Assembly: GCA_965203805.1 (NCBI GenBank)
Contig: OZ241917.1
Coordinates: forward strand, 5,568,001-5,632,000
Source: Candidatus Latescibacterota bacterium
Lineage (GTDB): Bacteria; Latescibacterota; UBA2968; GCA-2709665
Reading direction: 5' to 3'
DNA length: 64,000 bases
The position numbers and the translations under genes are program-made. The notes below the pieces were generated by a model. It saw only the letters and a list, made by a program, of their open reading frames with translations, did not search any database and was not told the origin of the DNA. This document shows, piece after piece, positions 38,107-58,925 of the stretch; the first letter of the stretch is position 1, and every line of letters starts with the position of its first letter.

Positions 38107-41100
38107 TCATTTCGCAACGCTATCGTGTTGGCTGCTCCCCACACCATTCAGCGATTTTTCAGCTTCTGACGCCGCGTCCTGCATGGCGCCTTCCAGGTTT
38201 TCCACCCTGACCTCGCGCCGGGGCTGCAGGTAGACGAACACCATTTCTTTGACCTCCTTTCCGGTGGCCTCGCGGATGGCGTAGGCATAGGCGCCGCCTT
38301 GAAGGCGATAGTCCTCCTTGAGGGGGCCGGACGCCTCGGCCGCGCTGACGGAATCGGTCTTGAAGTCGACCACCACCAGGTCGCCGTCTTCTTCAAACAG
38401 CAGGTCGATGAAACCGTGAAGGGAACCATCGCCGATGGCGACCGCCACCGGTACCTCACGCCAGAAACGCCTTGAAGCCACTGCCCGCCTCACGATGGCG
38501 CTCTCCACGGCAACGCGAGACAGACGGGCGATTTGATCGTAGCGACCGGGTATGCCCTCCGCCGCGGCCTGAGCGCGGGTCCGGTCATCAATACCGGCGC
38601 CAGTATCTAGGTCGATCGACTGAAGTACGGCGTGGACCGCCCGGCCGACCGACGTTCCCGCACGCCCTCGCCGCCACGGCTCGGAAGACTCGGGCTCGCC
38701 CTTTTGCTCGCGCAAACCACCACCCAGCGACGTCGCCGCTACGGACGAGGGTCGCCCCATTTCGGCATTCAACGCCGCGCGCTGATTCAACCACTTCTCG
38801 CGCGACTCGACGGAGTGCTCTACGTCGTCCTCAGGGTTTAATCCGTCGTCGCGCGCCTCTTGCAGATCCGGTGTTACGACGGGGTCATCCACGCAGATGG
38901 GCTCCCAAAGTCCCGGTGCTTCTGCCAGGTGCCCGGATATCGCACCCGCAGGGGACTTCTGGCCGCCCTTCGCCCGACGCCGCAGACTCAGCACGAGGTG
39001 GTCGCGGGCGCGGGTGGCGGCCACGTACATCAGGCGGATATACTCCGCATCGGATGTCTTTTTCTCCCTTTCGGCCAGTTCTTCGAATCCGTCGGTGAAA
39101 AAACCGAGTTTTTTGGGCCCAAGTCTCACTTCGACGGAGCCCGAGCTGCGGTCGACGAGCAGGGCGTCAGTCATGCTTTTTCTCTCTGAGTTGATTCCGG
39201 TCAGAATGACCACCGGAAACTCGAGACCTTTGGCGGCGTGAACGGTCATTACCCTCACCGCCTGTTCGTCCGATTCCGGTACCGGGGTCTCCGTGACGCG
39301 AGCCCGTTCGTTCATCTGATCCTCTACCCATACCAGAAAGGCCCGCAACGACGTTCCCCCCGAGCCGGCGAACTGGCGCGCCCGTTCCACCAGAAATCGG
39401 TAGCGGCGCCACTGCTCCCGCATGCGCGGGTGTCCGGTCGACGCTTCCATCAATCCGCGGTCGCGGACAAATCGGTCGATGAAACTGCCGGGCGTCTCCC
39501 ACAGACGCCGGGAATGGTAGGCGCTGAGTACGCCAAGAGCATCCGATACCGGGCCGGCGCCGCGTCCGGCCCGTGGATGCAGATAGTCGAATCCACCCCC
39601 GCCTTGAAAGTGCCTGAACAGATCGACGTCGCTGCATCCGAACGCCGGCGAGCGGAGCGCCGCGACAACGGCGACCTGATCGCCGGGATCGTCGATGGCC
39701 CTGAGGCAGTTCAACAGGTCGCGTATTTCCTGCGTTTCGAAGATGAGCGACGCGCTCTCCAGGCGGTAAGGTATTCCCGCGGCTTCAAGGCTCCTTTGCA
39801 ATATCGAAACGCCGGTACGGCCGGGCATCAGAATGCAGATGTCGGAATACGTGACCGATGTGTAGGTCTCGCTTCCGTTAGCCTCCGTAGCCTGACTGTC
39901 CAGTTTCTGCCACCTTTCGTCTGTCATTCGACGAATCAGTGCGGCGATATCCGTCGCTTCCATCCTGCGGATCCCGTCGATGTCGCCTTCCACCGCCACG
40001 TCGGACAGCGCCCAAACCTCCGGGCCGATGCCCGACGCCGGTCCACCGACCCAACGTGGGGCCATGTTCTCATACCCGGCCTGGTAATATCCCTCGTCTT
40101 CGGCTCGTTCCCGATCCTGCCCCATCCATTGTAAAAAAAGACAGTTGACCCAGGCGACGAGCCTCCGGTGCGATCGGAAATTCTGCGTGAGGCGGACCGT
40201 GCGGCCGCCCGCGAGCGCCATCCGTTCCTTCACCCTTTCCATCTGGGCCACGTCGGCACGGCGAAAACGGTAAATCGACTGCTTGGGATCGCCAACGGCG
40301 AATATCGCGCCGTTCCTGGGTTCCACTTGGTCCCATGCTCGAGGACGGGCATCGTCCGTGCGCCCCGGCGGTACGTCTTCGCAAAGGAACATGGCGATTT
40401 CGGCCTGTATCGGGTCGGTGTCCTGGACTTCGTCGATGAGCACGTGCGTGAACCGCCCGCGAAAGTGGTCCCGCACCGGGATATCGTCGCGGAGCAGGTC
40501 GCGCGCCCAGACCAGCAGGTCGTGGAACTCCGCCCGGCCTTCGGATCGCCTCTTCTCGGCGTACTCGAGAGCGAACTGCCGTACCCCCGCGAGAATCGGA
40601 TTCAAGACAGCGTGTCGGACCAGATTCAATTCAGTTTCTGTCGCAGCATGCAACTCATTGAGGCGTTCCTTGAGTACTTTACAGGCGTTGATTCCCGTTT
40701 CATGGTCGACGCGCCAATCCTTCTGGCTGCCCCTGCTGCATCTGAGCGGCAGCATTTGACGCAACAGTTGGTAGGCGATGGGCGATCCCGGGTCGGCATC
40801 CGCGAGCCTGCGTGCGGCTCCCGACCTGCTCTGAACGTGGAGGTACAAAGCGTCGTCGTCGACGGACTTCGCATACCGGCAGAGACGTTCCAGTTCTGGC
40901 CACGTCTTCAAGAGCGTCTCAACCGCTTTAGCGTCCCCGCGCGGCGAGGAATTGAAGCGCTTGCCGTGAAGGTCCGCGTAGTTTTCGTGAAATTCCCTCG
41001 CGGTGCTTCGAAGATGGGCAAGGGTCATGTCCAGCGTGAGGGCCAGCGCGAGGTGAGGCGCGAGAATCGAGTCTTCCTCCAGCATGTCGTCGATCCAGTC

Positions 41101-41571
41101 CTCCCATTCTTCATTGAACCGGATTCCCGCGGTGATGTCATCCGTCGTTTCGAAGCCCGGCGGCAAACCCGCTTCCAGCGGTCTTTCGTGTAGCAGCGTC
41201 GCGGCGAATGAATGCAGCGTCTGTATGGCGGCTTGGTCCAGATCCTTGATTCCCCTGGCGCAGGCCTTACGTTCATCCTCGGAACGGGACGCGTCTCCGG
41301 CTGCAACTTCCAATCCCTGGCGCACGCGGTCCCGTAACTCCGAGGCAGCCGCTTCGGTGAAAGTTATGGCTGCAATCCGGTCCAGCGTCGTCTTTCCCGT
41401 CGCCACCAGATTCACAACCCGTTTCACAAGGCTGGTCGTCTTGCCGGTACCGGCGCTGGCTTCGACGAACAGCGTTCCATCCAGGTCCTCTTCGATGATG
41501 CGACGGGAACATGCGTCGGCAGGGATGAAATCCGGCCGGCCTCCACCGGGCAGGTTCGGTCGAGCCGTCAT
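38107..41571 (-). CDS. addA: AddA-like UvrD helicase / PD-(D/E)XK nuclease
   Basis: EASAGTGKT, AITFTEAAA, LIDEVQDT, VGDPKQSIYRFRRAD, MTVHAAKGLEF, YVAATRARD, GFIDLL...VVDFKT. Confidence 0.88.
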   Translation of the reverse strand: MTARPNLPGGGRPDFIPADACSRRIIEEDLDGTLFVEASAGTGKTTSLVKRVVNLVATGKTTLDRIAAITFTEAAASELRDRVRQGLEVAAGDASRSEDERKACARGIKDLDQAAIQTLHSFAATLLHERPLEAGLPPGFETTDDITAGIRFNEEWEDWIDDMLEEDSILAPHLALALTLDMTLAHLRSTAREFHENYADLHGKRFNSSPRGDAKAVETLLKTWPELERLCRYAKSVDDDALYLHVQSRSGAARRLADADPGSPIAYQLLRQMLPLRCSRGSQKDWRVDHETGINACKVLKERLNELHAATETELNLVRHAVLNPILAGVRQFALEYAEKRRSEGRAEFHDLLVWARDLLRDDIPVRDHFRGRFTHVLIDEVQDTDPIQAEIAMFLCEDVPPGRTDDARPRAWDQVEPRNGAIFAVGDPKQSIYRFRRADVAQMERVKERMALAGGRTVRLTQNFRSHRRLVAWVNCLFLQWMGQDRERAEDEGYYQAGYENMAPRWVGGPASGIGPEVWALSDVAVEGDIDGIRRMEATDIAALIRRMTDERWQKLDSQATEANGSETYTSVTYSDICILMPGRTGVSILQRSLEAAGIPYRLESASLIFETQEIRDLLNCLRAIDDPGDQVAVVAALRSPAFGCSDVDLFRHFQGGGGFDYLHPRAGRGAGPVSDALGVLSAYHSRRLWETPGSFIDRFVRDRGLMEASTGHPRMREQWRRYRFLVERARQFAGSGGTSLRAFLVWVEDQMNERARVTETPVPESDEQAVRVMTVHAAKGLEFPVVILTGINSERKSMTDALLVDRSSGSVEVRLGPKKLGFFTDGFEELAEREKKTSDAEYIRLMYVAATRARDHLVLSLRRRAKGGQKSPAGAISGHLAEAPGLWEPICVDDPVVTPDLQEARDDGLNPEDDVEHSVESREKWLNQRAALNAEMGRPSSVAATSLGGGLREQKGEPESSEPWRRGRAGTSVGRAVHAVLQSIDLDTGAGIDDRTRAQAAAEGIPGRYDQIARLSRVAVESAIVRRAVASRRFWREVPVAVAIGDGSLHGFIDLLFEEDGDLVVVDFKTDSVSAAEASGPLKEDYRLQGGAYAYAIREATGKEVKEMVFVYLQPRREVRVENLEGAMQDAASEAEKSLNGVGSSQHDSVAK

Positions 41572-44500
41572 TCGGGTTCCTCCACGTCGTTCGCGAGCAA
41601 ACGGTAGCCGGAAAGCAGTGAATCCTCCTTCTTGCGCTCCCAGAGCTCGGTCCTTCTGGCCGCGCACAGGGTATCGAAATCGCAGAACCTGCAGTTTTCC
41701 GGGCCGCCGAACCCGTCCGGTCCCGGATTGGCGGGAAACACGCCGCCCTGAATGCCCGATACAATCGCTGACAGCGCGGCCTGGAACCGTGCCCGCACCG
41801 CGTCGTCCTCCAGATCGGAGTCCTCAGGAGGGTGAAACGCGAAACCGCCGCGGGTTGTCGTGAACCAGTAAGCGGCCCTGATTTCGCCGGCGCCGGTGAC
41901 GAACCGGCGGGCGGCCAGGGAGTACACGCTCAACTGGAGTCGCCTTCCCCGATCGATCGGGTCATTGCTCAACCGTTCGTACTGCCTGGCGCCGCCGGTC
42001 TTGTAGTCGATCACGAGGACAGAGCGCGACGTCGGGTTGACGTCGACCCGGTCGATGTACCCGCGAAATCGTACTCCGGTTCGGGGTTCCGTCACCTCCG
42101 GCGAGCCGCCGTGACCGAAACCCGCCTCGACCAGAACGTGACCGGTGCCGCAACGAGCACGGAGTTTCGCATCCTCTTCGATGAAGGTCTCCAGGTCGGC
42201 CCGGATGTCCTGCTTTTCCAGATTCCAGATCAGAGGTTTTCCCGTGACGCCACGCGACTCGGCGAGATCGAACTCCTCCCCTGCGATCCGAAACAACCTC
42301 CGGCGCAACGGGTCGCTCCATTCCGATCCTGGCGGCGGTAGCTTGTGTTCCTCAATGATCTCCGTCATGAACCGCTCCAGAATCCGGTGTATCAACGAAC
42401 CGCGTTCCAGGGGGGTCATGGAGGTCGTTTCTTCCGGCGCTTCGAGCGCGCTAAGTCTCAACACGTGGCCAAGGAAGTAGCTGAATGGACACCTGGCCCA
42501 ACTCTCCAGGCGCGTGGCCGAGACCGGCGCCCGGCGGAGTCCCCGCAGAAAATCCGCTTCTCGCGCGACAGATGACAGATCGCCGTCGAACTCCGTCAAC
42601 CGGCTCTGGTTCCGGCGTAGCGCCAACTTCGCGGCGTGGGCAAGAGTTCCCTCTCCGGAGAAGGGATGATCGAGAAGCGCAAATCCGCCCCGCCTCCACC
42701 GCAGGAGCCGGTGGAGTTGGTAGTCGTGCCGGTCGGCCGCGGCCGCGTCAGCGATAGTGACCAGCGCCTGTTCCGCCGACTCGTCGGCGGTTAACCACTC
42801 CCGATCCGGCAGCCGGCCCAGACCGCTTGCACGTACTGGTGAGCCCTCCATGATCGATGCCTGCTCGAGGAACCAGCGCGAGGGAAATGCTTCCCGTTGG
42901 GATGCTGGGTCGGCCACAGGATACGACAACTCACGGCGGGAGGACGCAGACGCAGCGGCGAGGTAGTCGTAGCGTTCCTCGGCGACCCTTTGCTTCAGGC
43001 GTGAGTCTCCCCCGGCGGCGTGCCAGTCCGATTCCGGCAGCAGGGGGTCGGGGCGAAACGGCGGCGGCATCCCGCCCTCGATCATGCCTACCATCCAGAC
43101 TCTCTCGAAGCGCATACCGGCTGCGCCGCGGACCGGGGACACGAACACGCCCGTTCCAATAGTCCCCAGGTGTCCGATCGTCGACCGCAGCGAATCCTCC
43201 ACAGTCTTCTTGAACTCGTCAAGCGTGGTCCCCGCGCGGATGCTTTCTGCGGCTTCGAGTTCCTCGATGGCGCGCCGGATCTTATCCAGGGAAGTCTTCT
43301 CATCGTCGGGGACGTCGCGGTCCAGGTCCAGATAGCGATTGAGGAGATCATTTGCCCACCGGCAGAACGCGCTCCAGGGACTTCCGTCCTTCGGCGGCTC
43401 GACGTCCGCCCGCAGTTTTTCGACGAAGGACGACACCTGGCGCGCGGCAGCAGCCTCGGACCTCATGCGTTCGGCGCGGGCTTCGGTTATCTCCTCCCCG
43501 GCAGCCAGTCGATGGGCCGCGTCGGTGAGTCGCTCCGCGTAATGGTTCAGCCGGTCTCGCCACTGCTCCGCACCCCGGACGATTCCCGCCTTTCGGGTGA
43601 GGGCGTCCCACCGGCTGGGGTTGAAGCCGGCAGCGGCCGCACCGGCGGGACGGACGGGACAGCCCGTCAGCCACGCCATGACGTCTTCACGCCGCATGTC
43701 GCTTCCGGACATCGCAAGCAGTCCGATTAGCGTACGTCCGGCGGCGGAGTCGGCCAGCGTCGACCTGTCCGGCCCCGCAACCGGAATCCGGGACATGCGC
43801 ATTTCGTCCAGGATGAGCGTGGCGTAAGGGTTGTCCATCCGGTATAGAACGGCCATCCGGTGGAAGGGAATTCCATCTTCCTCAGCTTCGCGGACGATTC
43901 GCCGAATCACCCACCTCAGTTCCTCGTGGGCATTGGGCGCGATATGCATTTTGGCATTGCGGGACAACAGCGGCATTGCGGCGTCGTCCTGAACGGCAGG
44001 AACGGGTTCTCCAAGCACGGGTACGAGCGCTTTTTTCAGCATGTCGACGGGTCTGTCGGCCGTCGCGTCGCCCGTCATTCCAAGGAGAACGTAGCATCGA
44101 CGTTGTTCTGCGAGAACCTGTACGAGCTTCGTCTCCGACGGGCCGGCGTCACGCGGAAGAAAAAATACGATTGTGCCAAGGTCCTCGAGGCCGGGGAGTT
44201 CGCCGTGAGTGGCGGCTTCTGCAGCCGCATGCGCCAGGTCTTCCGAATCGTACCACTCGCTACGGGTGTTTCGGCGGAATTCGCGAAATAACCGGACAAC
44301 TTCGCCGCACGCGCTACCCTTTTCCTGCAACCTGGCGAGAACGTCGTCGGCGACCCTCCGCAGTTCGGAGAATGACTGTCTTAGACTGGCCTGCGTCGCC
44401 GGATGTTGTCTGACATCCCTCAAACGTTCCGTGGCCCCGTCCAGCGAATCTCGGACCAAGACGCCTTCCAGGACTGCCGGAAGCGGCTTGCGGCCCGCCC

Positions 44501-44765
44501 GCGCAAGGGCCGCCGCTCCGAGAAGCTCCGACAACATCGGCATGACAACGAACCGGACATTGACGAAACTGCTGCGCCCCAACTCCTGGCGAAGGCTGAG
44601 GTTCACGTAGCTCGACGGACCGACCACGGTAACGGGAGCCAGCGCATCACCGCCCTTCGCTTCTCGAACCAACCGCCAGAGCGTCTCTCTCAACGCCGGC
44701 GACTGCCGTCCCGTGATCAATCTTCCCCGGTTCGGTGGCTTTGTGTACTTTGGGTCTGCCTGCAA
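41568..44765 (-). CDS. addB: AddB-like inactive helicase / PD-(D/E)XK nuclease with Fe-S cysteines
   Basis: SATRLESWARCPFSYF, GYIDRVD, IDYKTG, QLSVY, CRFCDFDTLC; ATGA overlap with addA. Confidence 0.85.
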   Translation of the reverse strand: MQADPKYTKPPNRGRLITGRQSPALRETLWRLVREAKGGDALAPVTVVGPSSYVNLSLRQELGRSSFVNVRFVVMPMLSELLGAAALARAGRKPLPAVLEGVLVRDSLDGATERLRDVRQHPATQASLRQSFSELRRVADDVLARLQEKGSACGEVVRLFREFRRNTRSEWYDSEDLAHAAAEAATHGELPGLEDLGTIVFFLPRDAGPSETKLVQVLAEQRRCYVLLGMTGDATADRPVDMLKKALVPVLGEPVPAVQDDAAMPLLSRNAKMHIAPNAHEELRWVIRRIVREAEEDGIPFHRMAVLYRMDNPYATLILDEMRMSRIPVAGPDRSTLADSAAGRTLIGLLAMSGSDMRREDVMAWLTGCPVRPAGAAAAGFNPSRWDALTRKAGIVRGAEQWRDRLNHYAERLTDAAHRLAAGEEITEARAERMRSEAAAARQVSSFVEKLRADVEPPKDGSPWSAFCRWANDLLNRYLDLDRDVPDDEKTSLDKIRRAIEELEAAESIRAGTTLDEFKKTVEDSLRSTIGHLGTIGTGVFVSPVRGAAGMRFERVWMVGMIEGGMPPPFRPDPLLPESDWHAAGGDSRLKQRVAEERYDYLAAASASSRRELSYPVADPASQREAFPSRWFLEQASIMEGSPVRASGLGRLPDREWLTADESAEQALVTIADAAAADRHDYQLHRLLRWRRGGFALLDHPFSGEGTLAHAAKLALRRNQSRLTEFDGDLSSVAREADFLRGLRRAPVSATRLESWARCPFSYFLGHVLRLSALEAPEETTSMTPLERGSLIHRILERFMTEIIEEHKLPPPGSEWSDPLRRRLFRIAGEEFDLAESRGVTGKPLIWNLEKQDIRADLETFIEEDAKLRARCGTGHVLVEAGFGHGGSPEVTEPRTGVRFRGYIDRVDVNPTSRSVLVIDYKTGGARQYERLSNDPIDRGRRLQLSVYSLAARRFVTGAGEIRAAYWFTTTRGGFAFHPPEDSDLEDDAVRARFQAALSAIVSGIQGGVFPANPGPDGFGGPENCRFCDFDTLCAARRTELWERKKEDSLLSGYRLLANDVEEPE

Positions 44766-47465: not shown

Positions 47466-47484
47466 GATGGAGCGAGATGGGAGC

Positions 47485-47518
47485 AAAAGAGGCGATTCTG
47501 AGCGGGATCGCCTTTTTT
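47485..47518. terminator. bidirectional-type intrinsic terminator
   Basis: AAAAGAGGCGATTCT-GAGC-GGGATCGCCTTTTTT. Confidence 0.8.
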
Positions 47519-47629: not shown

Positions 47630-48592
47630 ATGATTGACAAGAAACAGATCGTTCGACAGCTGGATATGCTGCGAGAACTCGCATCGCGAAGATATGGCGC
47701 GACGATCCAGGAACTTGAGAGGCATTTCGAGGTATCGCGGAGGACAATTGAGCGCGACCTTGGAGACCTTGGCGAGGCCGGGTTTCCACTGCTACCGGAA
47801 AAACAAGGCCGCCAAAACACCTGGAGACTCCTTCACGACAAGGAGATTCCTCCCCTTAACTTCCCTGCAGGCGAACTCATTGCCATGACCTATATCGGCG
47901 GAATCATCGAGGAGTCGCCCTTTAAGACCGAATATCAGAAAAGCCTGAACAGGATCCGGGCAACGCTGCCGGAAAAGATGCGCGTATTCCTGGAACAGGC
48001 GGCCTATCATCCGCATATTCGCGGACAGAAGGCTCAAGTAACACCTGAGGTATTTCGTAGAGCACAAGAGGCAATCGCGGAGCGCAAGCTCTGTAACGTG
48101 ACTTACCGTGCTATGAGTACCGGTGAAAGCAAGACCTATCCTATTCTGCCGTTCAGGTTTCTGTACCATTACGACGGTGTATATCTGCTCTGCCGCAATC
48201 CGAAATATGGGAATTTACTGACCCTCGCCGCGGAGCGGATTCAGGATATCCGGATCACGTCCCAGGTGTTTGACGCGGCGGAAGAATCTGATATTGAAGA
48301 GCAACTCAACCAGGCATTCGGTGTCGTTCTTGAAGCACCGATCGAGGTTAGCGTCCGCTTCTCGCCATCCCAGGCGCCGTATATCAGACAACGGATATGG
48401 CACCCCACCCAGGAGATCGAGGAATTGGACGACGACGGGATCATTCTTCACTTTCGCGCAGGTGGCCTCTATGAGATCAAGTCGTGGATTCTGAGCCACG
48501 GCGCAAGCGCCGAAGTCCTGGCGCCATCGTCCTTGCGTGCCGAAATTTCCGAGGAACTTGAAAAAAATCTGAGATCTTACAAAAAAACCTGA
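47630..48592 (+). CDS. wHTH-WYL-WCX transcriptional regulator
   Basis: HTH ELERHFEVSRRTIERDLGDL; WYL region AIAERKLCNVTY...PFRF...VYLL...ERI; WHPTQ, WILSHGASAEVLAPSSLR. Confidence 0.93.
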   Translation: MIDKKQIVRQLDMLRELASRRYGATIQELERHFEVSRRTIERDLGDLGEAGFPLLPEKQGRQNTWRLLHDKEIPPLNFPAGELIAMTYIGGIIEESPFKTEYQKSLNRIRATLPEKMRVFLEQAAYHPHIRGQKAQVTPEVFRRAQEAIAERKLCNVTYRAMSTGESKTYPILPFRFLYHYDGVYLLCRNPKYGNLLTLAAERIQDIRITSQVFDAAEESDIEEQLNQAFGVVLEAPIEVSVRFSPSQAPYIRQRIWHPTQEIEELDDDGIILHFRAGGLYEIKSWILSHGASAEVLAPSSLRAEISEELEKNLRSYKKT

Positions 48593-48596
48593 CTAC

Positions 48597-48631
48597 ATGC
48601 GACGCGGTTTGTCGTATATCCTGTTTAACTT
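48597..48631 (+). promoter_or_regulatory. DriD-like WYL operator plus -10 element
   Basis: ATGCGAC-N7-GTCGTAT at 48597-48617, TAACTT at 48626-48631. Confidence 0.7.
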
Positions 48632-48663
48632 GAGGCGTGTTCATTGGAAACACGCCTCTTTTT
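48632..48663 (+). terminator. intrinsic terminator after WYL gene
   Basis: GAGGCGTGTT-CATTGGA-AACACGCCTC-TTTTT. Confidence 0.8.
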
Positions 48664-48745
48664 GTTGCCCTGCGTCCGGAATGGCACGGCGAAGGCGTCG
48701 ACAGTCGAACCTTGGAAATCGAATTGCAGGAGAGGATCTCAATCA

Positions 48746-51532
48746 ATGGACCCACGGGAACTCAGGGAACTGTCTTCGAGAAGTGGACATTTTTCGTCCG
48801 CCAGCGAATACAGTGTGTATATCTCGCGCACCTACCTGCTGAACATATTCCGTGCTGCCCAGTTCAACCGAAGCATTCGGTCGGACCTCGTTGACTGGTT
48901 GGAGGATGACGAGACCACTCCAAAGCTCCTGAATGTCGGTTGGATTGTTCAAGACGGACACAAAAAAAGGGCAGTTATCAGAAACATCAAGCGTGCTGTT
49001 CAGGATCTCGAGCAGAAGACCGTAAGGCCACCTGAATCGGCCCCCGACACTACTGCAACCCGACTGGTCGTCGAACGTTTTTCGCTTAGCCCCGCGGCCG
49101 CCGCGCTACTCGAACTGGCGCACAGCTATAGCCATTGTTCTCCCACTAAAGAGATTTGGGACGCATTCTGCCACTCATGTTCAAGTTCGGTTGATAGACT
49201 GGAAGTCTTCCTGGGGCGCCCGCGACTCGAGATCGAGAGGGGTCTCAGAGAACTCGCTAGCTCCGGTATCACAGATTGGCGGACGGGCACGCGACCGAAC
49301 AAATACCACGATCCGGACGACCTCATAGAAGATTGGTTCTACGAAGTATGGTATCCGCCAGTGCGGGATATGGAAGAATTGACTGCTCGCCTGGTCGGTG
49401 AACCCTGTGTTGCCCGATTGTGTTTCGATGACTTCGCCCACGTCACAGAACGCAAGACCGTTCGCCGAACTTTGAGTGCAGTAATGCTCCAGCGATCCAA
49501 CGGCGCGCCGGTAAGGGGCGTCAACATCCTGCTCGTGGGTCGGGCGGGTACTGGCAAGACCGAATTCGCAAAGACGATCGCAGCGACATCCGGCTTGACA
49601 CTCTATTCCGTTGGGGAAATGGGAAATGGTGACGAAGAATCCTGCGATACCGACAACGACAGGCGCGCCGACCGTCGCAATGAACTGCGCATGGCGCAAA
49701 CACTGCTTCAGACCATGCCCGAAGCCGCGATTTTGTGCGACGAGGCGGAGGACGCGCTGGAGTCCACCAGCGGCTCCCGCCTCGTCAACCACCGGATGAT
49801 GGAGGAAAATCCCGTTCCGGTGATTTACACCGCGAACAGTTTAAAAGACCTGGACGAGAGCATGCTCCGGCGTTTCACGATGGTCGTCAGATTTAGGGCC
49901 CACGGCCCGACGCGTCAGGCTGCCATTTTAGGCCGAATGCTGGCCGAAAGCGGCATCGAGCGCGTCGATCCGGACGCATGCGCCAGGAAACTCGTCGACC
50001 GACTTGAGTGCCCCCCGGGGGTCGTGGCCAAAGCCATCGAGACGACGCGTCTGGTCGGCGGCACGGAGGCGGATCTCTACGAATTCTGCGAACGGTCCGA
50101 ACGCACCATCGCCGCACATAAAGCGCGCCCGCGTCTGGGGCCACCGATTGGGGCTGCGTTGCCGTGGAATGCGTTTTCGCACCTGGGGCCTACAGCCGAA
50201 GACGTGAGACAGACCCTTGCGGCCGCGATGGATTCGAAGCCAGGAGGCATCAATGTCCTCTTGTACGGACCTCCGGGAACCGGGAAAACCGAATTTGCAC
50301 GTACGCTCTGCGGCGAAGTGGGTGCACGCATGTACGCGATCGGCGACAATAAAGTTGGTTCCGAGACGCGTGTTGCCGTATCCCGTACGAAAACACTCGA
50401 TTATGCGCTGGAGTCATTGGCCGACGAGCCCGACTCGGTGATTTTCTTCGATGAAATGGAGGACTTCGACAGCGTGGAGAAACACTGGCTGAATCGCATC
50501 GTCGAAGAAAATCCGGTGCCCATCATCTGGGCGTGCAACTCGATTGGCTTCTACCGGATGATTCAGCCGTTCTTCATCGACCGGATGATGCACGCGATCG
50601 AATTCCACCGCATGTCCGTCGGCGCGAGGAAGCGTGTGTTCTCCGGTATTCTCACCAATGCACAGGTGCCTGATCCGGAAGCACGGCGATTTGCGACGGA
50701 ACTGGCGCACGACGACAGAATAACCCCCAGGCACCTGGCTCTGGCCGCACATCAGGCGGCTATGATCGCGGGGAACGCGGATGTCATCCGGCGCAATATT
50801 GAACAAAAAGTGAAACTGCGTTACGGCGTCCGTCCGGTCGAAAGCGTCCCCATCGAGAACTACAACCTGTCTCTGGTCAACGCGGATACGAATCTGGAAG
50901 CATTGACCGCACGGATGGTTGGAATCGGCCCGAAGCGTTTCGCGCTTTGTCTGTACGGCCCGCCCGGAACCGGGAAGACGGCTTTTGTGCGCCACATTGC
51001 AGAACGAATGGGAATGGAATTGTTGCCGAAACGAGCCTCGGATCTGCTCAGCATGTGGGTGGGGCAAACGGAACAGCAGATGGCCGCAGCCTTTGCTGAA
51101 GCTATTGAGACAGGCTCATTCCTTGTATTCGACGAGGCCGACTCCCTCCTGATGGACCGGGAGCACGCCGTGCGGTCGTGGGAAACCAGCATGGTTAATG
51201 AGTTGCTCAGCCAGATGGAGCGGCACCCGCTTCCCTTCGCCTGCACGACGAATCGGCGGGAAGCGCTCGATCCGGCGGCCGCCCGCCGCTTCATGTTCAG
51301 GGTCGAGTTCTTCTACATGGATAGACAGCGCGTCGAAAGGGCTTTCAGGTTCTTCTATGGCTGTGAAGCGCCCGTGGAGGCACTTGCGCTGAACAAACTC
51401 ACGCCCGCGGATTTCGCAAATGTCCGCGAGCGTGCGAAGATCATGAATTTTCTCAACGATCCGGAGCGTATCGGCCGCGAACTCGCGGAAGAGTGCCACG
51501 CGAAGCCGGGCGGCTCACCGGTGGGCTTCTGA
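48746..51532 (+). CDS. AAA+ ATPase with three tandem AAA modules
   Basis: Walker A GRAGTGKT, GPPGTGKT, GPPGTGKT; Walker B ILCDE, IFFDE, LVFDE; C-terminal VGF; AGGAGAGG RBS. Confidence 0.92.
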   Translation: MDPRELRELSSRSGHFSSASEYSVYISRTYLLNIFRAAQFNRSIRSDLVDWLEDDETTPKLLNVGWIVQDGHKKRAVIRNIKRAVQDLEQKTVRPPESAPDTTATRLVVERFSLSPAAAALLELAHSYSHCSPTKEIWDAFCHSCSSSVDRLEVFLGRPRLEIERGLRELASSGITDWRTGTRPNKYHDPDDLIEDWFYEVWYPPVRDMEELTARLVGEPCVARLCFDDFAHVTERKTVRRTLSAVMLQRSNGAPVRGVNILLVGRAGTGKTEFAKTIAATSGLTLYSVGEMGNGDEESCDTDNDRRADRRNELRMAQTLLQTMPEAAILCDEAEDALESTSGSRLVNHRMMEENPVPVIYTANSLKDLDESMLRRFTMVVRFRAHGPTRQAAILGRMLAESGIERVDPDACARKLVDRLECPPGVVAKAIETTRLVGGTEADLYEFCERSERTIAAHKARPRLGPPIGAALPWNAFSHLGPTAEDVRQTLAAAMDSKPGGINVLLYGPPGTGKTEFARTLCGEVGARMYAIGDNKVGSETRVAVSRTKTLDYALESLADEPDSVIFFDEMEDFDSVEKHWLNRIVEENPVPIIWACNSIGFYRMIQPFFIDRMMHAIEFHRMSVGARKRVFSGILTNAQVPDPEARRFATELAHDDRITPRHLALAAHQAAMIAGNADVIRRNIEQKVKLRYGVRPVESVPIENYNLSLVNADTNLEALTARMVGIGPKRFALCLYGPPGTGKTAFVRHIAERMGMELLPKRASDLLSMWVGQTEQQMAAAFAEAIETGSFLVFDEADSLLMDREHAVRSWETSMVNELLSQMERHPLPFACTTNRREALDPAAARRFMFRVEFFYMDRQRVERAFRFFYGCEAPVEALALNKLTPADFANVRERAKIMNFLNDPERIGRELAEECHAKPGGSPVGF

Positions 51533-51953: not shown

Positions 51954-52607
51954 ATGGATCGAAAGGACTTGTCAATCGCGCGTTTGATCCGCCGGCGGTT
52001 TCAGGACCTCGGTATCACCCGCGGTGAGCTTGTTCGTCGAATGGGATACGCCAATATTGCGAAGGGATGCAGGCGCATCGACCAGATCTGTGGTGGCCGT
52101 GTTGAATTCGCGGAGAACCTCCGGGTCGAGCTTGCAGAGGGCCTTGAGGTGGAAGTCAAGGTGATCGACGAGTCCATTGAGGTCACCCGTGCGGAACTGT
52201 TTGCAGCGGAAGACAAGGCCTATCGTGCGTCATTCAAGCCCCACGCCGTGATTCTGACGGAGCAAAGTGTACCGAGTCAGATCACGTTTTACGCGATGAC
52301 CGGCGGGGCCCGTCATCGGATTATTGCGTTCAAGGACGGGTCGACTCCTGAATCGTACGAGAAACAGGCACGAGAAGCCCTTCCGCGCGTGGTTCCCTTT
52401 TTAGGAAAGCCAACCGGTTATGTCATAAACTATAGTCCTGAATTTGCTCTGAGATTCAACAAGGATGGCAGGCTCGTCGCGAGGCTCAACCGCGCATTCC
52501 GTGTGGGGCAATCAAACGCTGCTATCGGCGGCAAGGAGATCGACGAGAAAACCTGGGCGTCGCTCCTCGGGGACGTAACTTTCCGTTCCTCGCTCGAAGT
52601 GGATTGA
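51954..52607 (+). CDS. hypothetical protein with N-terminal XRE-like HTH
   Basis: GITRGELVRRMGYANIAKGCRRIDQI; GGGAGG RBS. Confidence 0.7.
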   Translation: MDRKDLSIARLIRRRFQDLGITRGELVRRMGYANIAKGCRRIDQICGGRVEFAENLRVELAEGLEVEVKVIDESIEVTRAELFAAEDKAYRASFKPHAVILTEQSVPSQITFYAMTGGARHRIIAFKDGSTPESYEKQAREALPRVVPFLGKPTGYVINYSPEFALRFNKDGRLVARLNRAFRVGQSNAAIGGKEIDEKTWASLLGDVTFRSSLEVD

Positions 52608-52748: not shown

Positions 52749-53302
52749 ATGGACAAGGAAGCGTGCGATTTCCAGGAAGAAAGCGTTGGCTTAGCGGAGA
52801 CGTCAACTTGGCTTGAAATAACGCGAATATTTGGCTCTCTGCTGGATATACGCGATTACGTCCACAAGATTATGATGTCGGACTCGTGGGCATATGCAGG
52901 AAGTATGGCAGGCTTCCTTCACGGCCCCTCGCTGTCGCCGAGAACGCCACGAATTCGGTATGGCACTCAACGGCCATACTTATGTTCCCTTCCCTTAAAT
53001 CAAACACCTTTGGTGCTACCATTGATGCTGTCTGTGTGCGGCAACGATGGTTCATCTGCCATCAGATGGCCCATATGGCAACGGGCCATCTGGTCTATAC
53101 CCATTTGGGAAAGGTGGCAACTCACGGACCGGAATTCGCAGATGCATACCTTAATCTTGTCATAGAGATGTTGGGTGTTACTGAGGGTGCGAGGCTGTTA
53201 GCGGCCTTCGAACGCTATGGCGTAGAGCACCAGGTCACATCCTTCGACGCGCCCACGAGCGCACAGATGGAGGCATATTACCGTGAGTACGCTCTAAGGT
53301 GA
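52749..53302 (+). pseudogene. frameshifted SprT/TIGR04338-like metallohydrolase
   Basis: N-part DFQEESVGLAE...RDYVHKI in one frame; ICHQMAH (HExxH lost) and HGPEFADAYLNLV in another. Confidence 0.6.
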
Positions 53303-53514
53303 TATGGGCTTATGGCCCGTTTTATGGGGTAATAACCCCGGAAATTCAGGGCTCGTTGGCACAGAATTTACGCCTCTATATGGCGGAAGGGTCGGTCAAG
53401 CGGGTGCGCCCATCCCGTAGAGGCTGGCCAATATCTGCCGACACTAACAGATGTAGATTTCACTCCTATCGACAGCCGTCAGCCTGCCGACCCTTCAGCC
53501 AAAGGAGAAAGGTA

Positions 53515-53745
53515 ATGAACCGAGTTGGAGTTACACCCGTCGGAATAGTTGAGATCGAATCCTATGAGCATGCGGGAGGAAGTTGGATTGCACTAACTCC
53601 CCGGCCTCTTGGAAAGCCTGCCAATCCGAGGCCACCCCGGACCTCCTCGCTATCTCTCGGAGGGGCGCAGGAGCTGGCGGAGCGACTGCTTACCAAGGTG
53701 GACGATCTACGACGGGGAGACATGGGCGCCTACCCTGAACCTTAA
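53515..53745 (+). CDS. small hypothetical protein
   Basis: AAGGAGAAAGG RBS before ATG 53515; 76 aa. Confidence 0.5.
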   Translation: MNRVGVTPVGIVEIESYEHAGGSWIALTPRPLGKPANPRPPRTSSLSLGGAQELAERLLTKVDDLRRGDMGAYPEP

Positions 53746-53919
53746 GTTGTGGCGCAGATCGGCGGAGTTGCGTATGTTGATCCCGCCCTACTTTGAACAG
53801 CGGCAGACCGGAGGTCAAGCGGTTTCCATTGGCCGTCAAGGTTGGCGAGCACCTACCGCCCCAACGGATGTAGATTGTACCCCCTGCGGCTAGGCACCAG
53901 CCTGCATCCCGTCTGCATT

Positions 53920-53956
53920 GCCCCGATAACCCAACGTTATCGGGGCTATTTATTTT
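53920..53956 (+). terminator. intrinsic terminator
   Basis: GCCCCGATAAC-CCAAC-GTTATCGGGGC then T-rich run. Confidence 0.7.
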
Positions 53957-54103
53957 CGCTTAAAACCGCGTGTTAGCGCCGAATTGGCCCTCATTTTGCC
54001 TCTTGATAGGGGTGTCCCCAACCCTGGCGGGCACTGGAGTTAACCCAGGTCGTTCTGCAGGAACGACGTAGCGAAAGGACACACCCCTACGAGCGTCATC
54101 GAG

Positions 54104-54958
54104 ATGTACCAGCGGTTCCCTGACCAGGAGGCCTGCATCGACCACCTGGAGGAAATCAGATTCGGTTACAGACCATTCTGCCCACTGTGCGGATGCGTCT
54201 ACGTGGCCCGTAAGACCGACGGTAACCGGATCGGACGCTGGACCTGCTACGGCTGTAGATCGAGCTATAACGTCCTGTCCGGTACGCTGTTCGCGGGAAC
54301 CAGGATTCCCCTGCAAAAGTGGTTTTACGCAATCGACCTGATGCTTGCGGCAGCGAAGGGAATCTCAAGCTACCAAATGGCGCGGCATCTGGCCATGGAC
54401 CAGAAGACGGCCTGGTCAATGATGCAACGAATACGGATGTCGATGTTCTTAGCCCGGAACCGGCTGATCCTTAAGGGATTGGTTGAAGCCGATGAAACCT
54501 ATGTCGGAGGCGATGCACGGCCCGGCAGTAACCAAGGATGGGGAACCACTAAGTTGCCTGTCCTCGGCATTGTTGAGCGAGGAGGACGGGTTGTAGCGAG
54601 TCCGCTTAACGAGGTAACGGCCGAATCAATCCGCGAGTTCTTTGAGAATACGGTTATGGAAGGTTCGGAGCTACACACGGACGGACTCATTGCCTACCAA
54701 AATCTCAAGAACATCGTCTGCCACAGAGTGGTTAAGCGGCATCAGAAACGATTCCGTAACAACATCCATACCAACACGATCGAGGGGTTTTGGTCGATCA
54801 TCAAGCGGGCATGGAAGGGAACGTTCCACAATTACGGCAAGGAGCGGGCGCACCTGTATGCCGCTGAGACGTGTTATCGGTTCAACGCTCGAAAGAATCC
54901 GGATGGGTTTAACGACTTCATTATAGGGGAGCTATTCGGCGACAAAGACCCCATCTAA
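54104..54958 (+). mobile_element. IS1595 family transposase (element ends not identified)
   Basis: zinc ribbon CPLCG..CYGC, GISSYQMARHL, VEADETYVGG, LHTDG, HTNTIEGFWSIIKR. Confidence 0.92.
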
Positions 54959-55107
54959 TCCCGTTGGTCTGGATCTTTCAGGGCCCTGTCGATCAGAGAA
55001 TCGGCAGGGCTTTCTTTATTGGTCTCCGCGTCAAGGAATTCCTGCACTGTATCCTTCGCGCCCTGTCCGTCTGTGACCTTCTGGATCAATTCCTTTGCAG
55101 TTTTCAT
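54955..55107 (-). CDS. small hypothetical protein
   Basis: MKTAKELIQKVTDG...; GGGGA RBS; convergent with transposase. Confidence 0.5.
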   Translation of the reverse strand: MKTAKELIQKVTDGQGAKDTVQEFLDAETNKESPADSLIDRALKDPDQRD

Positions 55108-55564
55108 GCTATCCCCAAATGTAGAGCGTAGGGAGATTTTGTCAGCAACGGTCTTGACCATGCAGTCTCGACATGTTATATTTACGGCGTCAACGATTGG
55201 GCAGCTTCCCGCATGTCGGGTAGCCTACCAAATACAACAACGGAATTAAAGGGACACGGGTAGCTCCCATGTCCTCCGTGAATAGGTCGGACCTTCCCGC
55301 ATCCTCAAAGCTGCGTGATCGTTGACACTACCCGACACCCATACCCGGGTGACAGTGTCAACGGTATTCTACGCCGGAGAATGCGATGCGAAGCCCACTC
55401 GCAGCCGTAACGCTATTGGTCTGTGTGAATATCCCACCAACAGTCAACTGTCCACCCGATGGCGCCCTGCCTCACGTGTATCCGAGCGGGAAGCAATCTG
55501 CTTCCCGACACCAATCAAGCCTTAACTGGCCGTAACTTCGGGGGTTCGCATTACCCGGAGTCTA

Positions 55565-55757
55565 ACCTTGATTCGACATTTTTCGGTTAGGTTAAATCGA
55601 ATATGGGCTAGTTAATAAAGGCGATTTGACGTCGGATTTCCAGGATACTTCAGGTCACTGGACGTGAACGGAAAAAATGTCCATTTCGACGACTTTATCG
55701 GCCCAATTCGGAAGGATTTGTCGCGGCGCCGCGTTGCGGCTTTTGTCGAATTAAGGC
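55565..55757. mobile_element. MITE-like element B
   Basis: TA|ACCTTGATTCGACA ... TGTCGAATTAAGGC|TA, 12/14 inverted match. Confidence 0.6.
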
Positions 55758-55864
55758 TAAGCCCTAAACGCCTTGGAGCGTTACAGAAAGTCGCCTGATT
55801 TATTTCACAAGGGGGATATATGAGCATCAAAGAGAAACGCAACGCCATGCGTATGGGAAACAGA

Positions 55865-56392
55865 ATGAAAACGACCCTTATCAGCGCAACATTGCTTTGC
55901 GCCTTACTCGCCTGTGGTGACGATAAGCCTACTGAACCAGCCCCGCCAGACAATGCCCTTGTGGGGAATTGGCGATTCAGCGGATCGGAGTTGCCGCAAG
56001 CGTCTGCTGACAGGTTTTTGGAAAATTTGAAGGTAATTGGTTTTGATTCAAGCGCCGCAGTCACGTTGGTTAGCGAGTTTAAGGCATCGATTGACAGGGG
56101 AACGCAGGGTTCCGGGTTTAGTGTGTGGCGCATCAATGCAGACGGCACATGGTCAGACAATGACGGGGGAAACGGCACCTATACTGTTGCTGGTGACCGT
56201 CTAACGGTTTCCTCTCCTGACAACCCAACGCTGACCGGGCGGTATTTTGTGACTGATACGGCATTGACGTTTGATGTTGCCATTTTGGAACTCCTTAAAC
56301 AGCTTCAGGATATTGATTCTCCAGTAGAGGAAAGACAGTTTAACATCCTATTTGGAGGTGTGAATACTCGGCTTATCTTCCAGAAGATATAA
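55865..56392 (+). CDS. lipoprotein, lipocalin-like beta barrel
   Basis: signal peptide with LLAC lipobox, LVGNW, INADGTW, GTYTVAGDRLT. Confidence 0.75.
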   Translation: MKTTLISATLLCALLACGDDKPTEPAPPDNALVGNWRFSGSELPQASADRFLENLKVIGFDSSAAVTLVSEFKASIDRGTQGSGFSVWRINADGTWSDNDGGNGTYTVAGDRLTVSSPDNPTLTGRYFVTDTALTFDVAILELLKQLQDIDSPVEERQFNILFGGVNTRLIFQKI

Positions 56393-56445
56393 AATTCGTT
56401 GGTCACTGGGGACGATGTGACTTTGGGTTATAACCCCCCCAAACA

Positions 56446-57470
56446 ATGGGGGCGGTCTCCCGCATCCGGTCCACCACCCGCTGGTCGTTCACCTTGCCCG
56501 AAATGCCAGGGACTGCGACAGGTCGCACGGACCGAGGAAGACGACGTCCAGGTCGGACCGGGCGTTTATCGCGTCCAGGCTCTCCACGCTTTCCACGTGG
56601 ATCAGGACCATGGATTCCCTGGTGCGCCGTGAAAAGGCGCGGAACTCCAGTGGGTGAGAGTCCCACCCGACAAATGTTGCTGCGGTCGGTAGCAACCGGA
56701 GCGGGGGTGAAGGTAACGACATCTCCGAAGCCTCCGGTGTAAAGGGTCGCAAGGCGACTCGGCGAGTATGCGGGCCGAAACGTGCAGTGAACGCTGAGCA
56801 GGCCTCGAAAAAGGTAATGCGGGAGCCGACCCGCCCATGGATCGGGGAAGGCCGCCGTCGTTGGAAAAAGAGAGCAACGCGCGCATCCAACGGTCCCGCC
56901 TGCCTGTCCGAGGGACGCAGGCAGGCCGGGGTAATGGCGAAGGCACGTATACAAGGAGATCCGACGCAACACGGGAAGCCCCAGCGGTGGTGTATAGACA
57001 CCAACCGGACGCCCGTGAGGGACAGGCCGGGCCGTATGGGGTGGCGGACAGGCTCGTAGTACCCGTGAAGCCGGGTAATGCCGGTGGAGGGAAGGGGCCT
57101 GACTTCGGATGTGCTTGTGAAGGGGACAACGGTCGGGAGAGTGGCGCAAGCCTATTACCTCCTCTAAAAGTAGATGAGGCGACTCCAGAGCAAGCTTGGG
57201 CTTCAGGTGAAGCTGTCCGGGCAGTGCGGGCAGCGTGTGCCTGAAGGCGACGTCCGTCGGAGAGCCGGATGCGGGAAAACCGCACGTCCGGTTCGATGAG
57301 CGGGATGTGGAAACGGAGCACGGAGCGGCTATTGAGGCACCGCCAGACGAAAGGGGCGGAAACAGATAGGCCACTCCTAAACCACCGCGCCACATCTCGA
57401 CTCTACTTAAGCCGCTCGAAGATCTGCCCCCCTTCCAAGAAGTACCGGGCCACACGTGTATAGGGCCAGG
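56446..57470 (-). pseudogene. HpcH/HpaI aldolase fragment interrupted by intron copy 2
   Basis: removing the intron restores QIFERLNRESMVLIHVESVESLDAI...LDVVFLGPCDLSQSL; frameshifts on both sides. Confidence 0.8.
56622..57406 (+). mobile_element. ORF-less group II intron, copy 2 (785 nt)
   Basis: same length and, by eye and by identical ORF translations, same sequence as 17699-18483. Confidence 0.95.
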
Positions 57471-57499
57471 CGTACAGATCCCACACAACGAGGCGAGTT

Positions 57500-57910
57500 A
57501 TGGCGCGCAAGAAAAGTATAAAAGGGCACGCCCCCGGCGATGCGCGGACGGCGGCTGACGCGGCGGCGGAGAAGGAGGCCAGGGCGAAAGCGGCCGAGTG
57601 GCGGGAAATCGCCGAGCAAGCGGCCGACGATTATTCGAAGCGCGAAGGCAAATTTACGCGGAAGCTCACAGAATCGGAGGCGCAGGGCGCCCTTGCGAGG
57701 GGATGTATTGCGGCGAAGGGCGCAGCCAAAGCCTGGGCAGCCGTAGCGGACAAGTGGGAGGCCGGTGACCGGGACCGGGCAAAGCAGTACGAGGAGGAAG
57801 CAAACGCCGCGATGATGGATTCCCTGGACGGCCTCGACAAAGCGGACGAACTCTGGAAGATGGAGCAGGAGGGGAAATCGGCCTCGCAGGGTGGTACGAA
57901 ACGACCTTAG
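57500..57910 (+). CDS. hypothetical Ala-rich helical protein
   Basis: 136 aa ORF with GAGG RBS; no family recognised. Confidence 0.6.
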   Translation: MARKKSIKGHAPGDARTAADAAAEKEARAKAAEWREIAEQAADDYSKREGKFTRKLTESEAQGALARGCIAAKGAAKAWAAVADKWEAGDRDRAKQYEEEANAAMMDSLDGLDKADELWKMEQEGKSASQGGTKRP

Positions 57911-58065
57911 AGCCGGATCCATGGGCCAAGCCACCATAATCTATATTAAACTCGGAGGGGAGTTTTTTCACCAAATGTTGGCACGAAGGGGTCAGCATAA
58001 CAACGCCTGCCAATTGACATACTGGCAGGCGGGTTGTTGACGAAATTGTGTGATGCGGTGGATTC

Positions 58066-58314
58066 TTAATCTTTGGCGTTCAGCCTTGCTTCGTTCGCGG
58101 CGATGCGTTCACCGAAGGAATCCAATCGTGAGTCGATTTTGTCCAGGCGAACTTCGATTCTGTCGAATCGTCTATCAATACGCCGTTCCAGATCGCTTGT
58201 CATATAATACACAATTCCAAAGGTGGCGATGAAATTGGAGGTTGCCAACGCCAGGACGGCCACGATGATTCTGGTGGTTTCGGCGCTCCAGAATTTACCG
58301 TTACTTGCATTCAT
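58066..58314 (-). CDS. small single-TM coiled-coil protein
   Basis: paralog of 23445-23678 (RLDSFGERIAANEARL); TTGACA-16-TAGATT at 58363-58390. Confidence 0.8.
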   Translation of the reverse strand: MNASNGKFWSAETTRIIVAVLALATSNFIATFGIVYYMTSDLERRIDRRFDRIEVRLDKIDSRLDSFGERIAANEARLNAKD

Positions 58315-58450
58315 CGGGTACCCCCCGGATTGAACTCTTCCAGGTAGCTGTGATACAGTAAAAATCTAACAAATCGAGGGGGTTTGTCAAGCCTGACCTT
58401 GATTCGAACTAATCAGGCTGATAGAGTAACTGAACGAGGGCAAGATCATA

Positions 58451-58925
58451 CTCTGCAAATCCAGAATCATGGCGGGACGCCAGTGCGAGAAGCGTCTGTG
58501 GCTGGAGGTGCATCGGCGGGATCTCATCGCATACGACCCGGACGTAAAGCACCGCCTGGCGGTTGGCGAGGACGTCAATGTCGTGGCGCGTGCCCAACAT
58601 CCGGGCGGAGTACTGATCGAATACGATGACGGTGCGGCTCGTGGACCTCCTTCCCATCGTGCGAAGGACGTACTATCACCCTGATATGCTCGGTTCGTGG
58701 TCGATCAAGAAGGTCTTGCCAACGGTCGCGCCGCACCTCGACTACGGATCGCTCGGTGAAGTCCGGGACGGAGCCGCTGCAGGAACGGCTTATCTGCGGA
58801 TTATCGATCCTGAAACCGATGCCGCCGAGCCCCGGCGGCTGGAGCGGGAGTTGTTGGAATACTGCAAGCTCGACACGCTGGGGATGATGGAACTCGTGAA
58901 ATTTCTTTCTCAAAGTGGCCGGTAA
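58451..58925 (+). pseudogene. internally deleted DUF2779-type (nuclease-like) gene
   Basis: N-term LCKSRIMAGRQCEKRLWL joined out of frame to C-term YYHPDMLGSWSIKKVLP...LLEYCKLDT. Confidence 0.8.

Follow-up and report, generated by a model that had tools for sequence, protein, structure and literature searches.

The question raised here is why a regulator of the DriD type should stand immediately ahead of a single large ATPase gene in a 64,000-nucleotide (nt) stretch of DNA from a Candidatus Latescibacterota bacterium (contig OZ241917.1; henceforth the window). Among the WYL-domain proteins, the activators DriD and PafBC are global damage-response regulators, and the repressors are guards of defence operons. 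In the window, a gene for a WYL protein is separated from one coding for an ATPase with three AAA modules by a compact block comprising an inverted repeat (the box), a promoter-like element, and a hairpin. We find that the regulator, box, terminator, and ATPase constitute a real and conserved two-gene module and that the box is the predicted target of the regulator. We further favour a model in which the regulator activates a promoter nested against the terminator and thereby induces the ATPase. Coordinates are positions within the window, and features lie on the plus strand unless stated otherwise.

Anatomy and conservation of the regulator-ATPase module

The regulator gene extends from an ATG at 47630 to a TGA at 48590-48592 and encodes a 320-residue protein of the DriD family, which combines a winged helix-turn-helix (wHTH; residues 9-55), a WYL domain (residues 140-209), and a WCX dimer domain (residues 237-312). 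Its stop codon is followed by four bases (CTAC), the 21-bp DriD-type box ATGCGAC-GCGGTTT-GTCGTAT (48597-48617; ATACGAC-N7-GTCGCAT on the opposite strand), and, after a further 8 nt, a -10-like TAACTT (48626-48631). This element abuts the predicted intrinsic terminator of the regulator gene (48632-48663), a 10-bp stem with the arms GAGGCGTGTT (48632-48641) and AACACGCCTC (48649-48658), a 7-nt loop, and TTTTT (48659-48663). An unconserved 82-nt leader (48664-48745), with a Shine-Dalgarno-like GGAGAGG at 48729-48735, then leads into the ATPase gene, which runs from an ATG at 48746 to a stop at 51532 and codes for 928 residues. The first-pass annotation of this DNA had listed the WYL gene, the box, TAACTT, a 10-bp hairpin, and the ATPase gene in that order, all of which are present in the sequence; its distance of five bases between stop codon and box has to be corrected to four.

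The ATPase is found in 5 of 14 other genomes of the same genus, in none of seven genomes from the other genera of the family, and in 12 of 21 genomes of one genus in a sister family, where the proteins share 55-61% identity with that of the window. In all 18 loci (six in the window's genus and 12 in the sister family), the regulator gene immediately precedes the ATPase gene, and the entire succession of stop codon, four bases, 21-bp box, N8, TAnnnT, hairpin, and T-run recurs in 18 of 18 across the two families, many of these loci being close kin. Within the genus, the stretch from the stop codon to the T-run shows a mean pairwise identity of 83%, which is on par with the 84% of the end of the regulator coding sequence; the corresponding values are 42% for the leader and 46% for the region upstream of the regulator gene, where no box was found. 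The arms of the box are kept in the six loci of the genus while its spacer varies (GCGGTTT, GCGGTTC, TTAGTTC, CTGTTTC), and the boxes of the relatives read ATACGAC...GTCGTAT or ...GTCGCAT. In the sister family the distal arm takes the form YRYGAC and the proximal one GTCATAY. A locus from a third family (L101) displays a WYL gene, CCGCGAC-N7-GTCGCAC, 8 nt, TAGGTT, and then a relative of the ATPase with two AAA modules; no clear terminator could be discerned in it.

The regulator and its predicted site

The three domains of the regulator are recovered in Pfam past their cut-offs (HTH_11, E-value 1.7e-8; WYL, 6.6e-10; WCX, 1.6e-21). A sequence search of the PDB at E <= 0.01 returned five matches, every one of them a DriD construct, with full-length alignments spanning query residues 6-313 (PDB 9pfq and 8tp8; E-values 9e-13 to about 1e-12); neither BrxR nor CapW was matched at this threshold. 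The recognition-helix segment SRRTIER (residues 36-42) aligns with R36, R37, T38, E40, and R41 of DriD. The residues that read bases in DriD, given as Arg37, Glu40, and Arg41 in the available excerpts of PMC10853764, correspond to the identical R38, E41, and R42 of the window protein. On these grounds, we assign the regulator to the DriD family as a homodimer-type wHTH-WYL-WCX protein, as had been suspected from the sequence at the outset. It has the same domain order as DriD of Caulobacter crescentus, and the overall sequence likeness is low (E-value 9e-13 at full length).

The excerpts of the same paper print the DriD consensus site as ATACGAC(X)7GTCGTAT, precisely the form given in the first-pass annotation, and the window box departs from it by one base. 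The pattern ATRCGAC-N7-GTCGYAT has a single occurrence in the 5.87-Mb genome, and its reversed control has none. When up to one mismatch to the consensus is tolerated, two genomic sites emerge, and TAnnnT at the right spacing accompanies the window box alone. The other site (~3,671,936-3,671,980, outside the window) is embedded in a longer inverted repeat with 12-base arms around AGGAC and lacks TAnnnT at the right offset. A single two-mismatch site with the right geometry was also considered and discarded, being located at the 3' ends of minus-strand genes. Thus, the search for a regulon, which had been proposed earlier as a scan for more boxes, yielded no second credible box in the genome and left the window box as the one strong site. 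Since the DriD consensus is present together with identical base-reading residues, the match between protein and site appears specific rather than generic, and by sequence the box is a DriD-type site and the predicted target of the regulator.

This arrangement sets the regulator apart from its studied relatives. DriD acts globally on several targets (didA, recA, bapE, and others), whereas the window regulator has one site in its genome and a tandem-AAA ATPase as its predicted target; further, unlike in DriD, the box comes immediately after the gene for the regulator itself, and a terminator adjoins the predicted promoter. In mycobacteria, PafBC likewise uses two arginines four residues apart to read GTC; however, it is a heterodimer encoded by two genes that recognizes a single half-site and controls ~150 genes, as against the one regulator gene, two-armed palindrome, and one target seen here. 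No second WYL gene that could furnish a PafBC-type heterodimer was detected, the neighbouring genes being devoid of WYL domains. CapW and BrxR resemble the window protein in being local WYL regulators that bind palindromic sites beside a patchily distributed, island-borne gene, but they act as repressors at operators that precede their own operons, whereas the promoter grammar of the window is that of the activators.

A predicted promoter abutting a terminator

The predicted promoter core (48610-48631) consists of the proximal half-site TGTCGT, 10 nt, and the -10-like TAACTT, with no -35 hexamer. A scan of the box-hairpin block for a two-hexamer sigma-70 promoter found none. The -35 positions are taken up by the variable spacer within the box, and none of the 18 loci has a -35-like hexamer at the right distance. 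This spacing is that of PafBC-dependent promoters, for which the excerpts of PMC8635444 give the motif tGTCgg(N10)tA(N3)T and no -35. The excerpts of PMC13004042, in turn, describe DriD sites as overlapping the place of the -35 at a single fixed distance from the -10, in promoters without a good -35. In our own reading of three DriD promoters from the Methods of that paper, the 20-bp site is followed by 9 nt and then by CAAGGT, CAATCT, or CAAGCC, with the offset of the cA equal to that of TAACTT in the window.

Given the -10 at 48626-48631, transcription is predicted to start 6-8 nt beyond it, at 48637-48639, which lies within the left arm of the hairpin. The first-pass annotation had placed a start near 48638 in that arm. 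The TAnnnT at the spacing of the WYL activators points to the same place, and the start itself stands as a prediction from that element. We also considered the geometry first published for DriD (end of the box at -36), which would shift the start to near 48652 and make TTCATT in the hairpin loop the -10; this hexamer was set aside, as it is unconserved and lacks an A at position 2. Under the current and the first-published geometries alike, the start falls inside the hairpin.

The hairpin has 10 pairs, of which six are G-C, followed by the T-run. RNA containing it whole folds at -16.8 kcal/mol (z -4.25 relative to shuffled sequences), and for RNA beginning at 48637 the folding is on a par with that of shuffles (z 0.01). 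In the alignment of the hairpin, 95% of the cells are paired, as compared to 33-68% in slid controls, and four of its pairs show compensatory changes on both sides. The terminator claimed past the WYL gene is accordingly borne out as a conserved, predicted intrinsic terminator of the regulator gene.

The same linkage with the opposite gene order in distant lineages and plasmids

A scan of metagenomes with a family-specific linker motif retrieved 28 loci, some of them near-identical and together representing about six distinct versions, with an ATPase match in 27 (none in L172); the ATPases of all 27 are of the two-AAA type. Downstream sequence of at least 1000 nt is available for 17 of the metagenome loci; in 12 of them the gene immediately following on the same strand encodes a WYL protein, and one of these proteins matches DriD with an E-value of 1.4e-71. 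A box of the form [AG]CGTC-N7-GACG[CT] lies ~60 nt upstream of the ATPase in 12 of 23 loci with a callable ATPase open reading frame (ORF). The sequence 9 nt past the 20-bp site reads CATTCC, CAATGC, CATCCC, or TATCCC, with CCTTCC at one locus.

Relatives of the ATPase are also present in 12 plasmid records, of which two were inspected. The plasmids of Leisingera thetidis and Fuscovulum blasticum have an annotated AAA family ATPase followed by a WYL domain-containing protein. On the F. blasticum plasmid, GTGCGTC-N7-GTCGCAT precedes the ATPase by 58 nt; the L. thetidis plasmid has only a degenerate version of the box. On these two Rhodobacterales plasmids (NZ_CP109792.1 and NZ_CP020471.1; L176/L177), the next gene encodes an ADP-ribosylglycohydrolase, which is followed by a PD-(D/E)XK or HEPN gene, and these genes may form part of a larger conflict-type cassette.

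Since the box is found upstream of the ATPase in both gene orders, it follows the ATPase gene and not the regulator gene. The combination of an upstream box and a downstream DriD homologue in distant two-AAA relatives further indicates that the link between regulator and ATPase is old and independent of gene order. Comparison thus lends good support to the regulator-box-ATPase linkage across lineages. The first-pass annotation had called for a search for WYL-AAA neighbours and for conservation of the palindrome. The pairing recurs in the sister family, the third family, the metagenome loci, and the plasmids, and the box precedes the ATPase both in the 18 loci and in the independent lineages with the other order.

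The reach of other scans was narrower. A full-length ATPase alignment run against genome contigs retrieved one full-length relative (L008), in which a WYL-WCX gene lies ~3.5 kb downstream of the ATPase without adjoining it; the remaining matches were mostly unrelated AAA proteins sharing generic Walker motifs. When the top two candidates per genome were scored, one of 401 sampled genomes of another phylum had the ATPase. No relatives of the ATPase were found in viral contigs, and a metagenome scan with a narrowed alignment of the N-terminal domain recovered none.

The ATPase as a putative unfoldase

Pfam recognizes three separate AAA stretches (PF00004) in the ATPase, behind an all-helical N-terminal region (residues 1-255; 48746-49510). 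Module 1 (49511-50125) displays Walker A as GRAGTGKT (residues 265-272), Walker B with D332 and the adjoining E333, and the paired arginines R375/R376. Module 2 (50234-50815) has GPPGTGKT (residues 508-515) and D569/E570. Module 3 (50918-51532), which belongs to the classic clade, has GPPGTGKT (residues 738-745), D796/E797, a pore-loop WVG (residues 771-773), and R847/R848. An alignment with 57 homologues shows G265, R266, T269-T272, D332, R375, and R376 of module 1 to be invariant, with A267, G268, and E333 conserved in at least 90%; in module 2, G508, P510, G511, G513, K514, D569, and E570 are invariant, and P509 and T515 reach at least 90%. In the Walker A of module 3, invariance is confined to G738, G741, G743, and K744 (P739 at least 90%), and it extends to G773 of the pore loop, D796, E797, R847, and R848. 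Hence, the Walker B aspartate is invariant in all three modules, and the glutamate in modules 2 and 3. Modules 1 and 2 retain their Walker motifs and lack a typical pore loop.

The solved proteins nearest to module 3, by sequence as well as by fold, are VAT, Cdc48, p97, and Rix7 (D-domain E-values down to 2e-29), all unfoldases with which it shares the Walker A and B motifs, the WVG pore loop, and the paired arginines. VAT and Cdc48/p97 differ in having two AAA modules per chain rather than three, and a double-psi barrel N-domain in place of a helical one. Because module 3 is Cdc48/VAT-like with an intact pore loop, the ATPase is predicted most likely to be an unfoldase remodelling proteins or nucleoproteins. 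At the level of the whole chain, fold searches gave generic two-AAA matches with poor template-modelling scores of about 0.2-0.3. The AlphaFold model, a confident one with a mean predicted local distance difference test score of 82, shows the N-terminal 255 residues to be helical. The N-terminal domain has a Pfam match at E 0.18 only, and in the Atlas a winged-helix variant family appears in a minority of one cluster.

Full-length homologues with three modules populate more than 100 clusters at 40-94% identity, with labels including Gemmatimonadota and Rhodospirillales, and no name was attached to them in the clusters looked up. The best match of module 3 in both PADLOC and NCBIfam is IetA of the defence pair IetAS, a likeness limited to one AAA module; the score in the NCBIfam IteA model is 95.9 bits, with the cut-off at 510. 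No gene for an IetS-like protease was detected among the neighbours scanned. The claim that the pairing is unrecognised as a characterised system has held: no PADLOC model covers the regulator-ATPase module, the IetA matches extending over one AAA module, and a pairing of a DriD/WYL regulator with a tandem-AAA ATPase was not found in the literature searched for it.

Genomic setting and turnover

Upstream of the module lies an AddA/AddB-type helicase-nuclease pair (38107-44765, minus strand; UvrD helicase and PD-(D/E)XK domains), and past it, on the plus strand, genes for a short-chain dehydrogenase, an EndoIII-like glycosylase, and a DksA/TraR zinc-finger protein, the last with its own terminator at ~47480-47515. 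These upstream genes are retained in the congeners, and the repair genes among them also in those without the pair; in six genomes without an intact pair, dksA and a second paralogue of the glycosylase are separated by other DNA. The pair of the sister family follows nfeD-floA and has variable genes downstream.

Three ORFs without family match follow the pair in the window, along with genes for an IS1595-family transposase (54104-54958), a T5orf172/GIY-YIG-like protein (59022-59879; weak match to PADLOC PDC-S57), and an Mrr-like nuclease (60545-61522; weak match to PADLOC PDC-S02). The stretch from 52749 to 61522 is variable and island-like, with two small ORFs without matches and a lower G+C content than the upstream region. 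The first of the ORFs behind the ATPase (51954-52607), coding for 217 residues without a Pfam or PADLOC match, accompanies the pair within the window's genus only: it follows the ATPase in all five congeners carrying the pair, and no copy was found in the six examined loci that lack an intact pair or in the sister family. Possibly it was carried in by the same insertion as cargo, and its membership in the module is uncertain. A DUF7424 gene past the ATPase in a sister-family locus was considered as its counterpart and proved unrelated.

The module also displays signs of decay and rearrangement. In one of the six congeners without an intact pair (L137, 1192-2200 of that locus), a regulator gene with an in-frame stop has been fused by deletion to a piece of the ATPase matching residues about 705-725; the box and terminator are lost together with most of the ATPase. 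At L005 (a congener) and L099 (the sister family), one ATPase copy has a single in-frame TAG and another is cut to ~500 residues; the latter copy matches residues 495-928 and lies directly behind an intact box-terminator block. In a further sister-family locus (L098, about 650-1500), ~900 nt including tandem GCCACAAAAG-like repeats are inserted between the T-run and the start of the ATPase.

Proposed mechanism and alternative explanations

Taking the above features together, we consider it probable, though far from assured, that the window contains a self-contained module in which the regulator activates the nested promoter, the resulting transcript escapes the terminator, and the ATPase is induced. 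Ligand-bound regulator on the box would recruit or adapt RNA polymerase, as DriD and PafBC do, and given the missing -35 the polymerase would start only with its help. Read-through transcripts from the regulator gene would contain the whole hairpin and hence stop, whereas the activated transcript, starting at ~48637-48639, would lack most of the left arm and continue into the ATPase gene. The ATPase gene would thereby stay silent until the regulator detects its signal, for which a nucleic-acid ligand such as single-stranded DNA (ssDNA) derived from damage or invading DNA is the probable candidate. We infer activation by the regulator from the geometry, the absent -35, and its likeness to the DriD family.

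Several observations weigh against parts of this proposal. The start site, and hence the escape from the terminator, is predicted from the position of the -10, and as RNA the box can form a hairpin of its own with 8 bp. The kinship of many of the loci means that their counts overstate independence. The winged-helix likeness of the N-terminal part of the ATPase (residues ~97-220; Z 5-7.3) is weak, with its best Z of 7.3 below the safe level. With regard to the ligand, the excerpts of PMC10853764 list seven DriD residues as important for ssDNA binding (Y168, R176, R178, Y192, R204, R207, and Y240). On the alignment from the PDB search, two of these seven (Y168 and Y192) are identical in the window regulator, R176 is a lysine, and R178, R204, R207, and Y240 are replaced. 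As most of these contacts differ, the ligand may not be ssDNA, and the trigger that the first-pass annotation had put forward is doubtful.

There are also indications that the ATPase is not always expressed through the switch. Seven of the 12 sister-family leaders (L088, L089, L091-L094, and L097) display a sigma-54-type TGGCAY-N5-TTGCY between the T-run and the start of the ATPase. No other strict match occurs elsewhere in the 19 loci scanned on both strands, and none in the six loci of the window's genus. Moreover, the sister family has three further copies of the ATPase without regulator or box, a near-consensus sigma-54 promoter, CTGGCACGGTATTTGCTT, lies upstream of one regulator-less paralogue (L180, about 1866-1883), and rpoN is encoded in the genome. 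The sigma-54 motifs and regulator-free copies of the sister family imply that the ATPase family can be expressed without the switch, and by these motifs it may also be under the control of enhancer-binding proteins. A loose sigma-54 match in the window leader (48713-48728) was examined and rejected, since the start would follow the ribosome-binding site and the match is lost in the closest relative.

One alternative bears on the role of the module rather than on the switch, namely that it is a chromosomal DNA-damage-response unit and not an anti-phage or conflict system. We regard this as possible but doubtful. DriD and PafBC are themselves damage-response activators, and the pair adjoins AddAB, the EndoIII-like glycosylase, and DksA; however, these flanking genes are conserved in congeners that do not have the pair, which itself occupies a variable spot between conserved genes and is patchily distributed in the 5 of 14 congeners and the single genome among those sampled from the other phylum. 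The plasmid relatives, moreover, stand beside HEPN, PD-(D/E)XK, and ADP-ribosylglycohydrolase genes.

With respect to the switch itself, the regulator could instead act as a BrxR/CapW-like repressor, with the box, lying across the core promoter at about -41 to -21 from the predicted start, blocking the polymerase until a ligand frees the regulator. That position is equally suited to occlusion. The WYL regulators studied beside defence genes are repressors in the available excerpts of PMC9122601 and PMC11662680, and the setting is reminiscent of a defence island, with the IS1595 transposase, T5orf172, and Mrr-like genes in the window, GmrSD or McrB-like genes beside two of the relatives, and, on the plasmids, HEPN and ADP-ribosylglycohydrolase genes. 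Nevertheless, we deem repression rather unlikely. An unaided promoter would be weak given the want of a -35-like hexamer in the 18 loci, the spacing of the box equals that of two activators as far as the excerpted accounts of these describe it, and the PDB search points to DriD and not to BrxR or CapW. Furthermore, the binding sites of the studied repressors precede their own operons, whereas the window box lies downstream of the regulator gene.

A third explanation, by which the block is no more than the 3' end of the regulator gene, where two hairpins terminate or stabilise the mRNA, and an unrelated promoter in the leader serves the ATPase, could draw on the box being scored as a weak terminator-like hairpin of 8 RNA pairs and on the sigma-54-type evidence set out above, but it is highly improbable. 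The box agrees with the DNA site of the closest characterised relative, with the base-reading residues kept; it precedes the ATPase even where the regulator gene lies downstream and hence cannot serve the regulator gene as a 3' element in those lineages; and the strict sigma-54 pattern is absent from the six loci of the genus, with the loose match in the window being unsuitable.

Conclusions

Returning to the activated, terminator-escaping promoter as the preferred reading, what is new is a DriD-type protein with a DriD site and the grammar of an activator that is dedicated to one neighbouring tandem-AAA ATPase gene, along with the recurrence of the same regulator-box-ATPase link, with the gene order reversed, on plasmids and in Alphaproteobacteria-like contigs. 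The pair thus offers a new and testable class of targets for the DriD family of regulators. If the promoter is nested against the terminator as predicted, it would also represent a compact natural arrangement combining low leak with high inducibility.

Beyond this, we venture a speculative picture that we hold with more doubt than conviction. The module might be a stress or anti-invader system, as yet undescribed, that moves horizontally and occurs in several phyla and on plasmids, and whose sole effector is an unfoldase transcribed only when the WYL sensor detects abnormal nucleic acid. In the window's lineage, the ~60-bp promoter-in-terminator block would both insulate and switch this effector, and the three-module chain might dimerise into a six-module ring. 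In any event, the module provides a handle on an uncharacterised family of three-module AAA+ proteins with more than 100 sequence clusters, and an induced unfoldase that acts on invaders or damaged chromosomes would, if true, represent a new effector logic.

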